The notes: a model not told the origin generated them from the letters alone. A DNA stretch of 64,000 bases from Acidimicrobiia bacterium (GCA_046565645.1 JBKHYD010000040.1:71785-135784); one strand, 5' to 3'. Shown: positions 58,235 to 64,000, counted from the first letter of the stretch. A program made the numbers and translations.

Positions 58235-58279
58235 TGGTGGGCGCGAAGGGACTCGAACCCCTGGCCTCTGCCGTGTGAA
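58235..58279 (-). other. tRNA 3' fragment (anticodon loop to CCA only); putative att core of the downstream island
   Basis: Minus-strand read TTCACACGGCAGAGGCCAGGGGTTCGAGTCCCTTCGCGCCCACCA. It has a T-arm with a TTCGAGT loop, a 7-nt acceptor 3' strand and ACCA. No matching 5' acceptor strand (GGGCGCG) or D-arm lies upstream. The TTCACAC loop would imply Val(CAC), tentatively. Confidence 0.65.
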
Positions 58280-58376
58280 CGTGACCCGACCGGACTTAGG
58301 CGGACACTGACGGAACCCAGGCCCAGGTCAGACGGGGTGCGCGGACACCACCGGAAGGCATCGGACGCGACCGGAT

Positions 58377-58398
58377 GTGCCATGGACGTGCCATGGAG
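58377..58398. repeat. Tandem direct repeat GTGCCATGGAC GTGCCATGGAG
   Basis: Read directly. Lies between the tRNA fragment and the stop of the 58404..59132 gene. Confidence 0.7.
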
Positions 58399-58403
58399 CG
58401 GAC

Positions 58404-59132
58404 CTAAGCGCCGAGGAGCTCGCGCCCGTACGCCAACAGCTCCCCGCCCGCTCGACCCTTGGGCGGTTTGCTGAGGATCGCAAGCCTCCTGGCCTGGCCG
58501 AGCTGTCCGAGCACCGTCTTGTAGGCCTGGTGAGTCTCTGCTGCGAGCGCCTTCACCGGGGCGGGGTCGCCCTCGTCCACCAACTCCAGGTACCTAGCGG
58601 CGAGCCGCGCGTACACCTCGTGCGGCACGCCGCGACGGCCCGTGCGCTTTCCAAGATCGTCTGGCCACTCACGATCCAAATCAGGCAGTTGAGGACGGAT
58701 ACCAGATAGCTGCTGTCGCGCTACCCGCTCGAGCTCGTCGAGAGGAAGGCGACGTAGGAGGCGCATCGTGATCCCGCCTGGCGGCCTTCGAGCGCCCCTG
58801 AAGTACTGCCGGCCAGCCCATGGTTTCGTGGTTCGAAACAAGGCCAAGTGGCTCCCGTCGTCGAGTTCTGCGCTGCGCTGCAGCGTGGACATGTTCTCGA
58901 TCCCGACCCCGATCGGGATCCAGTCGCTGACCGAAAACACCCGAAGGTCGACCAACTCGAGACCAGTGACTCCATGGGTGAAGCGCATGGCCACCGCCCA
59001 CGCGCCTGTCCATTCCTGATCCTCATCGTCGACCCAGTTGATGGCCGGCTGGACGACCGTCACCGAGCGCTCGCCGAACTCGTCGACGGCTTCGGCGAAG
59101 TCGACCGGGCGGGCATCGGTGAATGGGTGCAC
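58404..59132 (-). CDS. Hypothetical protein (242 aa), divergent from the island HTH gene; possible C-terminal HTH
   Basis: GTG-initiated ORF with no recognised family. The C-terminal segment AYKTVLGQLGQARRLAILSKPPKGRAGG resembles a DNA-binding helix. Lower GC than its surroundings by eye. Confidence 0.6.
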   Translation of the reverse strand: MHPFTDARPVDFAEAVDEFGERSVTVVQPAINWVDDEDQEWTGAWAVAMRFTHGVTGLELVDLRVFSVSDWIPIGVGIENMSTLQRSAELDDGSHLALFRTTKPWAGRQYFRGARRPPGGITMRLLRRLPLDELERVARQQLSGIRPQLPDLDREWPDDLGKRTGRRGVPHEVYARLAARYLELVDEGDPAPVKALAAETHQAYKTVLGQLGQARRLAILSKPPKGRAGGELLAYGRELLGA

Positions 59133-59194
59133 GCATCGACAATACCCGATGGCCGGCCTCAGTATCGGACCTACTCGGATTCAGGAGGTCCCAC

Positions 59195-59503
59195 ATGGAA
59201 CGGTTGCTCTATTCGATCCCCGAAGCGGCTGCGCGGCTCGGCCGAGGGAAGTCAACGGGCTACGCGATGGCCGCAAGCGGGGAGCTCGAAACCGTGCTCC
59301 TCGGCTCGCGTCGGATGGTCCCGGCCGATGCGCTCGAAAAGCTCATCGGTCGACTCCGCGCCGGATCGCCCAGCGTGCAGCGCCTCGTCGATCTGATCGA
59401 GGACGACGGCCGGCTCGACGTCACCCGCATCCCGCCCGGCACGACCCTGGCCGACCTCGAGGCCGCCCAGCGCATCGTCGCCGAGCGGCAGGTCCCGGCA
59501 TGA
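59195..59503 (+). CDS. Excisionase/MerR-type helix-turn-helix DNA-binding protein
   Basis: ATG at 59195 lies 6 nt after AGGAGG. LLYSIPEAAARLGRGKSTGYAMAASGELETVLLGSRRMVPADALEKLI is the Xis-family HTH pattern. Confidence 0.8.
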   Translation: MERLLYSIPEAAARLGRGKSTGYAMAASGELETVLLGSRRMVPADALEKLIGRLRAGSPSVQRLVDLIEDDGRLDVTRIPPGTTLADLEAAQRIVAERQVPA

Positions 59504-59796
59504 GCCCCCCTGAACGCGCCGCCTCCCCGGGCTGGGGATCCGGGGAGGGCGACAGGATCACGCTGGACGGCACGATCTCCCCCAAGGATGCCACACACGA
59601 CCCTGAGTTGTGCGCCACCTGCCTGCGTGGGGTGCGGCCGTGGACCCCGGAGCGCCGGGAGGCTGCCGCCAGCTACGCGGCGACATCGGGCCGGCGCATC
59701 GACCACCTGCCTCATGGTGAGCGCTCACCTGGCCCGCTCGAGGACGTGCTGACACGGTTCCACCCGGACTGGAAGCGGGAGGACGCCCGTGTCTGA
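59500..59796 (+). CDS. Hypothetical protein (98 aa)
   Basis: ATGA overlap with the HTH gene. Last 98 codons of ORF 59038..59796. No recognised motif. Confidence 0.5.
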   Translation: MSPPERAASPGWGSGEGDRITLDGTISPKDATHDPELCATCLRGVRPWTPERREAAASYAATSGRRIDHLPHGERSPGPLEDVLTRFHPDWKREDARV

Positions 59797-62160: not shown

Positions 62161-62210
62161 CGACGGTCGACGCCCATCCGACGCGGCGCCCTCATGCAGG
62201 GACCTCGGAA

Positions 62211-62264
62211 TGTGTACGGGTGTGGGGTTCCTGGGACTCCATCTCCACCGCGCTGTGTACGGGT
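62211..62264. repeat. 11-bp direct repeat TGTGTACGGGT x2 (62211 and 62254) in the noncoding gap after HNH
   Basis: Read directly. Followed by the hairpin GTCTGGGG-13 nt-CCCCAGAC at 62282..62310. Confidence 0.7.
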
Positions 62265-62410
62265 TACCGACCGCAGGGCGGGTCTGGGGCCCGTCCGGAG
62301 ATCCCCAGACTCACGCAGGAGGCGACCGCTATGCTGAGGGGCGTCGCGTCTGGCATGCGTCGACCGTGCTCACCCCCACCGCCCCCTGCGATCACCAAGG
62401 TGGTGTCGAA

Positions 62411-62878
62411 GTGAGCGCCGTGAGTCCGATCGACTGGTCCGACGAGTCGATCGACTGGGCCCGGTTCGCGGCTGAGGTCGGACGCCAGATCCAGCAGGAG
62501 TGCCTACCCGAGCAGTTGCTGCCTGGCCTGCTGGCCGCCGACGAGGGCGAGGTGGCGGTGGTGTTCGAGCGCCGCGATCAGATGGGCCCGAACGAGCCGG
62601 AGAACTTCGGTGCCGAGGTGGCCCGGGTTCCGTGGTGGCGTGTCCGTCACCCCGATCCCGACCGGCTCCGCAAGGCAGCCGCAGCGGCGCTAGATCGGTT
62701 CCCGACCCACCTAGCCGACCAGCTCTCGACCGCCATCAACCGAGGCGAGCTCGAGGTGATCGCCCCGTCCCATGAGGATTGGGTGTTCGTGCACGTCCGG
62801 CTTGGCGAGGAAGTGGTGAAGCTCTACGCCGCACACCGCCGCGCGGTGGTGGACGGGTGGCCCGAAGATGAGGGTTGA
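62411..62878 (+). CDS. Hypothetical acidic protein (155 aa) at the position usually held by packaging genes
   Basis: GTG at 62411 behind AAGGTGG. Last 155 codons of ORF 61991..62878. No terminase or portal motif recognised. Confidence 0.55.
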   Translation: MSAVSPIDWSDESIDWARFAAEVGRQIQQECLPEQLLPGLLAADEGEVAVVFERRDQMGPNEPENFGAEVARVPWWRVRHPDPDRLRKAAAAALDRFPTHLADQLSTAINRGELEVIAPSHEDWVFVHVRLGEEVVKLYAAHRRAVVDGWPEDEG

Positions 62879-63052
62879 ACATACGTTCGCCACGGGTGCT
62901 ATGCTGTCAGCTAGGTCTCACCGCGCCGGCAGCCCCCCTGCGAAGCGGTCACGATCGGACGCTTCGCCGCCCTCGCCGCAACCCCCAGAGCGGGCCGGGA
63001 GGGACGCAAGGTCGCCGAGGAGCTTCATCCCTCGCGCCCCGGAGGCGAACCA

Positions 63053-63604
63053 ATGAGCGTCCTACACCGGACCAGTGCCGACCTCGAGCTTCGTTCCGAT
63101 GGGGACGGCCGCACCGTCTACGGCATCGCGGTGCCCTTCGGCCAGGTGGCCGAGGTCCCCGACGACTACGGGTCGTCCTACCGGGAGACCTTCGTACGAG
63201 GCTCGTTCGCTCGGACGATCGTCGAACGCGGCAGCCGGGTGAAGCTGCTCGCCAACCACGACCGCCGCCGGTTCCCAATCGGTCGGCCCACCGTGCTGCG
63301 CGAGGACGCTGCGGGGCTCTACATGGAGGCTCGCATCAGCAAGACCCGTGACGGCGACGAAGCGCTCGAGCTCATCCGAGACGGTGCGCTCGACCGGTTC
63401 AGCATCGGGTTCCGGCCCATCCGCCACCGCGTCACCCCCGAGCGGGTGGTGGAACGAACCGAGGTCGCGCTCAGCGAAGTGAGCCTCGTCGCGTTCCCCG
63501 CCTACGACGGCGCAGTCCTGGCCGGTGTCCGGTCAGGCCCCTTCCTCACCCTCGAGGCCGCCCGAAAGCGCCTCGCCCTCATCGACAAGGACTTCCTCCT
63601 ATGA
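63053..63604 (+). CDS. HK97 family phage prohead protease
   Basis: 183 aa. GYAVPFG-like YGIAVPFGQV, LLANHD, RFSIGF and EVSLVAFPAY are hallmark blocks of the S78 prohead protease. GGAGG lies 7 nt upstream. Confidence 0.9.
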   Translation: MSVLHRTSADLELRSDGDGRTVYGIAVPFGQVAEVPDDYGSSYRETFVRGSFARTIVERGSRVKLLANHDRRRFPIGRPTVLREDAAGLYMEARISKTRDGDEALELIRDGALDRFSIGFRPIRHRVTPERVVERTEVALSEVSLVAFPAYDGAVLAGVRSGPFLTLEAARKRLALIDKDFLL

Positions 63605-64000
63605 CTGACATCCAAGACCTCCGACGCTCCGTCGCAGCCCAGCGCGACGACCTGATCGCCCAGCGCGATGCACTCCGCAACCAGGCACGCGAGCTGCTCG
63701 GCCGCTCCGGTGACCTCGAGGGTGACGACCTCGACGCCTTCACCAGAATCGAGAGCGAGCTCGAGCTCCTCTCGAAGCGCCTCGAGCTCACCGACCGCAT
63801 CGCCTCCGGGAACGTCGCCCTCGAGTACGGCTCGGTCCACGAGAACGACTTCCAGATCCAGAAGCGCGTCGACCCGTGGGAGAGCCAGGCCAACGAATCC
63901 GCCCACGACGTCCGCGGCCGTGTCCTCACCGCCATCGAGCGATGGAACGCCGACGACGAGCTCAAGGAAAGCGCCACCGAAACCATCGAGCGGCTGGACC
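63601..64000 (+). CDS. Phage major capsid protein (HK97-like), N-terminal part only
   Basis: ATGA overlap with the protease stop. The hand-translated coiled-coil N-terminus MTDIQDLRRSVAAQRDDLIAQRDALRNQARELL... is typical of a capsid delta/scaffold domain. The frame is open to the window end. Confidence 0.75.
   Translation, partial: MTDIQDLRRSVAAQRDDLIAQRDALRNQARELLGRSGDLEGDDLDAFTRIESELELLSKRLELTDRIASGNVALEYGSVHENDFQIQKRVDPWESQANESAHDVRGRVLTAIERWNADDELKESATETIERLD

Follow-up and report, generated by a model that had tools for sequence, protein, structure and literature searches.

The window analysed here is a 64,000-nucleotide stretch of DNA from Acidimicrobiia bacterium (GCA_046565645.1 JBKHYD010000040.1:71785-135784). 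Its right end holds a compact phage-like island that begins at a fragment of a transfer RNA gene and carries replication and head genes. The island was read from position 58235 to the end of the window at 64000 and across the 1110 nucleotides (nt) that the Logan contig L001, identical to the window over 5095 nt, adds past the window end. To the left lie ordinary chromosomal genes for CarD, a lipoprotein and an FKBP-type lipoprotein, the last of which stops at 58195 (FKBP_C, 7e-36) and is followed by a 39-nt spacer and then the tRNA fragment. The change in base composition coincides with this fragment: GC content is 0.691 in the island versus 0.728 in the host part, where the lowest 5.8-kb segment has 0.699, and GC at third codon positions (GC3) is 0.78–0.93 in island genes versus about 0.96 in host genes. 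The composition of the island is foreign to its host. An earlier note on this DNA had described a complete switch of gene content after a 45-nt tRNA 3′ fragment, and both measures drop at this point; every gene it listed is present, and a 98-amino-acid (aa) gene at 59500–59796, which it overlooked, completes the list.

The right part of the sequence read encodes a head module. An S78 (HK97-type) prohead maturation serine protease of 183 aa (63053–63604, plus strand; PF04586, 1.8e-21; phrog_80, 4.4e-39) is followed, with a 4-nt gene overlap, by an HK97-fold major capsid gene (63601–64000, plus strand). The window contains 133 of the 480 capsid codons, and L001, on which PF05065 is detected, carries the gene to the equivalent of position 65043. 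The N-terminal ~100 residues of the capsid protein are coiled-coil and scaffold-like. The capsid and a 155-aa protein encoded upstream are each 100% identical to NCBI proteins from metagenome-assembled genomes (MAGs) of Acidimicrobiia bacterium, the former under the name 'phage major capsid protein [Acidimicrobiia bacterium]'. The extension in L001 consists of the rest of the capsid gene and a terminator-like hairpin, with no further gene. Exact look-ups of protease and capsid returned two short Logan contigs only, L001 and L002, which end 61–67 nt past the capsid stop and derive from independent assemblies (SRR23730085 and SRR23730086). Both assemblies break just beyond the terminator-like hairpin (L001:6139-6205 and L002:3292-3352, corresponding to 65044–65110 in window numbering), and this shared break hints at a repeat or strain variation directly downstream.

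Upstream of the protease–capsid pair, the position of the large terminase subunit (TerL) and portal genes is filled by an HNH endonuclease gene and the gene for the 155-aa protein. The HNH endonuclease (110 aa; 61828–62160, plus strand) matches PF01844 (7.7e-12) and 24 HNH PHROGs, and an HNH gene stands at the matching place in the capsid relative L007. HNH endonucleases of this type assist terminase in HK97-like cos phages. The 250-nt gap between the HNH gene and the 155-aa gene contains a long imperfect inverted repeat (62158–62372) with 34-nt arms that are 76% complementary; the fold of this segment has a z-score of -2.88 and is matched by 2 of 200 shuffles. The structured gap is a candidate site for packaging or regulation. 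A gap similar to it in size precedes the 155-aa homologue of another relative, L004. No significant structure (z = -1.3) is seen in the interval that separates the protease from the 155-aa gene.

The 155-aa protein (62411–62878, plus strand) belongs to an orphan family that is conserved beside the protease–capsid pair. Its homologues adjoin the protease upstream in both copies of the L004 element, and a further homologue, 40% identical, occurs in the locus L097. The family, comprising proteins of ~135 aa, has 41 cluster representatives among 1.84 billion proteins, with invariant residues D15, R18 and R143 and a conserved HRxxVVxGWP motif. An AlphaFold2 (AF2) model of the protein reached a pLDDT of 93.2 and a pTM of 0.83, a single-sequence model being unusable at pLDDT 41. 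Comparison of the former with PDB and BFVD gave no fold match, query-normalised TM-scores being 0.29 or lower. The protein has no Pfam, PHROG or PADLOC match, PHROGs likewise matched none of all 37 family members, a word-indexed homologue search returned the protein itself only, and a profile of the family against PDB sequences gave only noise. Its placement upstream of protease and capsid invites the guess that it acts in head assembly or hijacking.

Integrase, terminase, portal and tail genes were searched for with Pfam, PHROGs and local TerL and portal profiles, and none was detected in 58235–64000 or in the 1.1-kb extension. The earlier note had reported their absence from the 5.8 kb it covered and had proposed that terminase, portal and tail genes be sought downstream; the first statement holds, and the extension likewise lacks them. 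Family searches of the part read found no lysis gene, and no island protein matched an adaptor or connector in any of them. A reading of the island as defence cargo was dropped, as PADLOC returned no meaningful match.

The left part of the island carries regulatory and replication genes. A divergent 242-aa gene (58404–59132, minus strand) has no Pfam, PDB or phage match, and only a weak match to a helix-turn-helix (HTH) PHROG (phrog_11473, 'HTH DNA binding protein', 3.8e-6, residues 117–240). With this possible HTH in its C-terminal half, the protein is a candidate master regulator, and a repressor role is suggested because the gene occupies the position of repressors in phage-inducible chromosomal islands (PICIs). 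It is followed by a 102-aa HTH_17 (MerR/AlpA/Xis-type) protein (59195–59503, plus strand; PF12728, 1.2e-7; phrog_66, 'excisionase and transcriptional regulator'), which is 38% identical to its counterpart in L097 and is, by sequence, a putative excisionase and/or early activator. The 98-aa gene comes next (plus strand; called in L001; GC3 0.83); it overlaps its neighbours by 4 and 8 nt, and its product has no family match in Pfam or PHROGs. The 373-aa RecA-fold AAA_25 ATPase (59789–60910, plus strand) matches PF13481 (1.2e-5), primase, helicase and UvsX PHROGs, and RecA in PDB. Its Pfam score of 25.5 is just below the cut-off of 27, and a primase domain is not present. AAA_25 genes stand at the same position in L003, L006, L009, L013 and L094, and the ATPase may serve the island as its replication initiator or helicase.

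Four small genes of 64, 97, 45 and 79 aa (60907–61754, plus strand), coupled by start/stop overlaps of 4–11 nt, link the ATPase gene to the head module. The 64-aa product is Cys/His-rich, the 45-aa product is Cys-rich and the 79-aa product is a SWIM-type zinc finger, with 16.7 bits against PF04434 (cut-off 19.6) and a visible CxC..CxH motif. The 79-aa protein is 41–53% identical to genes in L005 and L007. All open reading frames (ORFs) of the island, 12 genes in total, are intact and tightly coupled. A scan for sigma-70-like promoters found none, and terminator-like sites numbered 1, with 1.4 expected by chance.

The left boundary of the island is marked by a displaced 3′ half of tRNA-Val(CAC) (58235–58279, minus strand). 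This confirms the tRNA 3′ fragment of the earlier note and specifies it as an exact match to tRNA positions 32–76, including CCA, with canonical arm lengths. Read on the minus strand, the 45 nt are TTCACAC-GGCAG-AGGCC-AGGGG-TTCGAGT-CCCTT-CGCGCCC-A-CCA, comprising a 7-nt anticodon loop with CAC, the 5-nt 3′ side of the anticodon stem, a variable loop of 5 nt, the T arm AGGGG-TTCGAGT-CCCTT, the 3′ acceptor strand CGCGCCC, the discriminator A and CCA. The bases 5′ of the fragment are unable to pair as an anticodon stem and ARAGORN calls no tRNA at 58235–58279, so this is a fragment rather than a gene. In a constructed test, joining it to a generic complementary 5′ half produced a sequence called as tRNA-Val(cac) of 76 nt. 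The T-loop motif GGTTCGARTCC occurs once in the 64 kb, at the fragment, against 0.07 occurrences expected. Rfam gives the fragment a weak match only, to the tRNA/tmRNA clan. A transfer-messenger RNA (tmRNA) origin was ruled out: position 70 is C, so the G3:U70 pair is absent.

The tRNA fragment probably represents the island's attachment-site copy on the left. Because the tRNA is on the minus strand and its displaced 3′ copy lies at the left, the island and the intact tRNA gene are expected to the right. An island placed at a tRNA gene by a tyrosine recombinase carries the 3′ segment at both ends and has its integrase next to the intact tRNA; here the exact 45-nt half is seen at the left end only, the right end lying beyond the window. 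Even when up to 3 mismatches are allowed, the window contains no second copy of the 45-nt core, and the exact core has no match in IMG/VR.

Relatives of the capsid place the island among compact elements. The capsid has 99 relatives in the databases. An initial capsid search of species-representative genomes gave no match; a search with the capsid alignment A2 found 3 loci among 185,579 such genomes and no match in IMG/VR. Genomic contexts were fetched for the closest relatives and for 80 metagenomic loci and searched with TerL and portal profiles built from Pfam-verified seeds, counting only loci with at least 3.5 kb of upstream sequence. TerL or portal was found upstream of the capsid in none of 7 loci with a capsid identity of at least 45%, compared with 35 of 37 distant loci. 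In the distant relatives (31–37% identity), the capsid is immediately preceded by a pair of large ORFs, Pfam-verified as TerL and portal in L021 and L057, and tape-measure and tail genes lie downstream. The nearest isolated phage, Gordonia phage Eyre (capsid 38.7% identical), has as annotated the order TerL, portal, protease, capsid, connectors and tail, and the island capsid is 31–39% identical to capsids of ordinary tailed actinophages overall. All relatives with at least 45% capsid identity reside in integrase-bounded elements of 5–10 kb. The two distant relatives that have neither gene upstream are L022 and L046 (33–35% identity), which may be further independent compact elements; in L022, a host Na/H exchanger gene and a tRNA-Ser lie ~3 kb from the capsid.

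These contexts bear on whether the island could be a complete temperate prophage of odd gene order, whose terminase, portal, tail and lysis genes would be located beyond the window's right end. The element does run off the window, and some compact relatives have one tail-type gene, a tape measure, past the capsid. Against this, the protease–capsid pair is immediately preceded by TerL and portal in 35 of 37 distant relatives and in Eyre, where the island has the HNH and 155-aa genes, every relative at or above 45% capsid identity is compact, and the 1.1-kb extension ends in the hairpin with no new gene. We therefore regard a complete prophage as very unlikely. The compactness of the island copy itself rests on these relatives, since its right end was not read.

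Among the compact relatives, the Streptomyces sp. NPDC055085 element (L003) lies between copies of a 27-nt repeat 9.2 kb apart and combines a tyrosine integrase with HTH_31, HTH_17, AAA_25, capsid and protease. In L007 and L008, ~6 kb accommodate an integrase, HTH_17 and small genes together with HNH, a 102-aa gene, protease and capsid. L009 has a host DUF3558 gene after its integrase, AAA_25 and capsid genes, and L006 has integrase, HTH_17, AAA_25, WhiB, the small terminase subunit (TerS) and capsid. The S. synnematoformans element (L011) ends ~4.7 kb past the capsid, where GC rises from 0.66 to 0.78, and that of Tenggerimyces flavus (L094), ~9 kb long, encodes integrase, AAA_25 and capsid as well as a protein of 547 aa. 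In L007, a tRNA-Pro(GGG) gene lies between two tyrosine integrase genes (L007:1838-5074) with the capsid module only in the right-hand island, an arrangement that suggests two different islands side by side. In an Acidimicrobiaceae MAG (L013:2975-4948), a single ORF of 657 aa encodes a fusion of protease and capsid (S78 + Phage_capsid).

Two further features of these relatives point to dependence on another phage. TerS occurs without TerL in three of them, L004, L006 and L016, and a small terminase subunit without the large one is a classic satellite signature. L004 combines TerS with the 155-aa homologue, protease and a capsid 66% identical to that of the island, and further carries a 91-aa gene, a tape-measure-like protein of 620 aa and a serine integrase. 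Tape-measure-like genes follow the capsid in four relatives (L004:4245-6107, L011:3024-5264, L013:5133-6315 and L094:10001-11644), all of which are compact and lack TerL, portal and major tail genes. When the L004 tape-measure-like protein was used as a query, the island's own contig was absent among the 120 matches listed of 547. The L004 sequence, a JGI metagenome contig (L004:1-11676), contains two tandem, diverged (73–97% identical) copies of a ~9-kb serine-integrase element, which could reflect tandem integration or the assembly of two strains.

L097, found via the 155-aa family, is a decayed relative that retains both of its ends. A ~5-kb element (L097:7001-12212) is situated between a tRNA-Pro(GGG) gene and a second copy sharing its last ~52 nt, in the order tRNA-Pro 3′-end copy, reverse-strand gene, HTH_17, primase/helicase remnant, 155-aa homologue, capsid fragment, tyrosine integrase and intact tRNA-Pro. 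Its capsid is reduced to a 67-aa fragment, the protease is lost and ORFs are frame-shifted. ARAGORN still calls the tRNA remnant of L097 as a tRNA. From the geometry of L097 and the other relatives, the island studied here is expected to reach an integrase and the intact tRNA-Val past the capsid, perhaps with a further gene or two in between. The whole island would then measure roughly 8–10 kb, the window holding the left four-fifths.

The closest described parallels are phiRv1 and phiRv2 of M. tuberculosis. These elements of ~10 kb run from integrase and Xis-type HTH through a replication protein, small genes and a packaging gene to prohead protease and HK97 capsid, and are not known to carry TerL, portal, tail or lysis genes; the site of phiRv1, whose integrase is of the serine type, is in REP13E12 repeats. 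The island shares with them an actinobacterial host and a similar gene order, a comparison made by gene order and class rather than by protein sequence. It differs in lying at tRNA-Val, in having an HNH gene in place of a recognisable small terminase and in its Acidimicrobiia host. The likeness to phiRv1/phiRv2 had been proposed in the earlier note and agrees with the literature, where SatelliteFinder files such elements as a Mycobacterium PICI subfamily (PMC10085698) and others list them as 'candidate PICIs' (PMC10654092). The SatelliteFinder PICI core comprises an integrase, an AlpA/Stl-type regulator, pri-rep, small terminase and capsid morphogenesis, while tail, holin, portal and connector genes count as 'forbidden' (PMC10085698). 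In the island, the HTH_17 gene stands beside the replication module and the divergent 242-aa gene, capsid and protease provide the capsid-morphogenesis function, and the part in the window contains no forbidden gene. The Mycobacterium candidate PICIs, defined by carrying genes for an integrase and the major capsid, are at tRNA genes when their integrase is of the tyrosine type; some carry helicases, terminase or scaffold, and a helper has not been demonstrated for them (PMC10654092, Abad et al. 2023). Compared with these, the island is from another host class and its expected integrase would lie outside the sequence read.

Taken as a whole, the locus is probably a phiRv1/phiRv2-like, PICI-type phage satellite with its own capsid shell, which most likely spreads by borrowing the packaging motor, portal and tail of a helper phage. 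Several points weigh against this assignment. The right end is beyond the sequence read, so that the integrase, the second core copy and the absence of tail and lysis genes there were not seen. No small terminase was detected by Terminase_4 or phrog_1496, nor by tblastn with the TerS of relatives, and the AAA_25 and SWIM scores fall just below the Pfam cut-offs. There is no evidence of excision, of a circular form or of a helper phage, and mobilisation is not known for any satellite of the capsid clade concerned. Decay in place, as in L097, might also have rendered the island copy inactive.

Some of these points are shared with the idea that the island is an inactive satellite or prophage remnant, fixed in the chromosome and no longer excised or packaged. 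The window shows no integrase, TerS is not detectable and L097 is clearly decayed, all as expected of a remnant. However, 12 of 12 island genes are intact with start/stop overlaps as in an expressed operon, the capsid is full length at 65–69% identity to its relatives, and the same architecture occurs with intact integrases in several lineages. These observations make a remnant unlikely.

Satellites that build their own capsids are known from several hosts. Capsid-forming PICIs (cfPICIs) of Proteobacteria and Firmicutes likewise use genes for an HK97-type capsid, protease and HNH to build a capsid of their own, with only tails and lysis coming from the helper. They also carry their own TerL, portal and head-tail adaptor or connector, which the part of the island read does not. 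The island therefore does not count as a cfPICI; with TerL and portal not found, it would need the portal and packaging motor of its helper too. EPIPs (Extracellular Prophage-Inducing Particles) of Mycolicibacterium aichiense, reported in a December 2025 preprint, are isolated 11-kb satellites that encode TerS, head-tail adaptor, stopper, scaffold, major capsid, tape measure, an HTH protein and a serine integrase; they are helper-dependent, and their particles have smaller heads and longer tails (PMC12822802). By description, the relative L004 fits EPIPs well (TerS, capsid, tape-measure-like protein and serine integrase), whereas of the packaging, structural and integrase genes of EPIPs the part of the island in the window shows the major capsid only. 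The Streptomyces satellites MiniFlayer and MulchRoom (PMC10690885) and Ando (PMC13587820) are ~13 kb in size, have their own capsid genes and no tail or lysis genes, and form small capsids on helper tails. Ando possesses terminase, portal and scaffold but no replication genes (PMC13587820), in contrast to the island, which has replication genes and no terminase or portal.

Dependence on a helper would not apply if the island were an autonomous HK97-fold mini-virus without tail and portal, or a transfer element that packages itself. Such an entity is compatible with the capsid, protease and HNH genes that the island has of its own, with the orphan conserved protein and with the small genome, and small HK97 viruses termed 'twilight' have been proposed from metagenomes (bioRxiv 10.1101/2025.06.18.659913). 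Yet no packaging ATPase is recognisable, the capsid is close (31–39%) to those of ordinary tailed actinophages, the TerS and tape measure of relatives make sense only with a helper terminase and tail, and the isolated analogues, the EPIPs, are helper-dependent (PMC12822802). Helper-free propagation is thus most improbable.

For a helper-dependent satellite, the gene content suggests the following course. A tyrosine integrase and an intact tRNA-Val would lie just past the capsid gene, by analogy with L097. Infection or induction of a helper siphovirus would lift repression by the 242-aa protein, after which HTH_17 and the integrase would excise the element and the AAA_25 protein would replicate it. 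Protease and capsid, the latter with its scaffold-like N-terminus, may then form satellite-specific, probably smaller procapsids on helper portals. Island DNA would be packaged by the helper large terminase together with the island HNH protein, acting on a site in the gap between the HNH and 155-aa genes. Connectors, tails and lysis would be supplied by the helper. The proposal in the earlier note that such elements borrow their tails may be too simple, as several close relatives carry a tape-measure-like gene of their own.

A broader reading, possible though doubtful, is that the island represents an Actinomycetota-wide satellite lineage, spanning Acidimicrobiia, Streptomyces, Tenggerimyces and Mycobacteriaceae-like EPIPs, that would remodel both ends of the helper virion. 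Its members would make a small head with their own capsid and protease and would often contribute a tape measure of their own to the tail, and in the branch studied here the 155-aa protein, HNH endonuclease and structured gap would form a new hijacking or packaging module that replaces TerS. With a 155-aa protein lacking a structural match and a tape-measure gene in relatives, the family is a reasonable one in which to study the redirection of head and tail assembly by satellites.

Gene flow and resistance to phages are both shaped by phage satellites, and those of actinobacteria are known mainly from Mycobacterium catalogues and a few isolates. The earlier note's statement that satellites of this kind are poorly described in Actinobacteria is accordingly half true, given the existing Mycobacterium catalogues and the isolated satellites (PMC10690885, PMC12822802, PMC13587820). 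This kind of island is already recognised in other Actinobacteria, bioinformatically in Mycobacterium, and Acidimicrobiia is a host class in which none had been noted. The locus extends the phiRv-like capsid-encoding type to this abundant, mostly uncultured soil and aquatic class, and does not overturn current understanding. The capsid clade tracks the compact lifestyle almost perfectly, so that the capsid can serve as a marker for such elements in metagenomes, in which models of the SatelliteFinder type would miss them; these models would reject the tape-measure-bearing relatives because tail genes are forbidden.

Outside the island, the sole intact tRNA in the window is tRNA-Arg(TCG) at 46872–46953, to which ARAGORN assigns a length of 82 nt, long for a class I tRNA.

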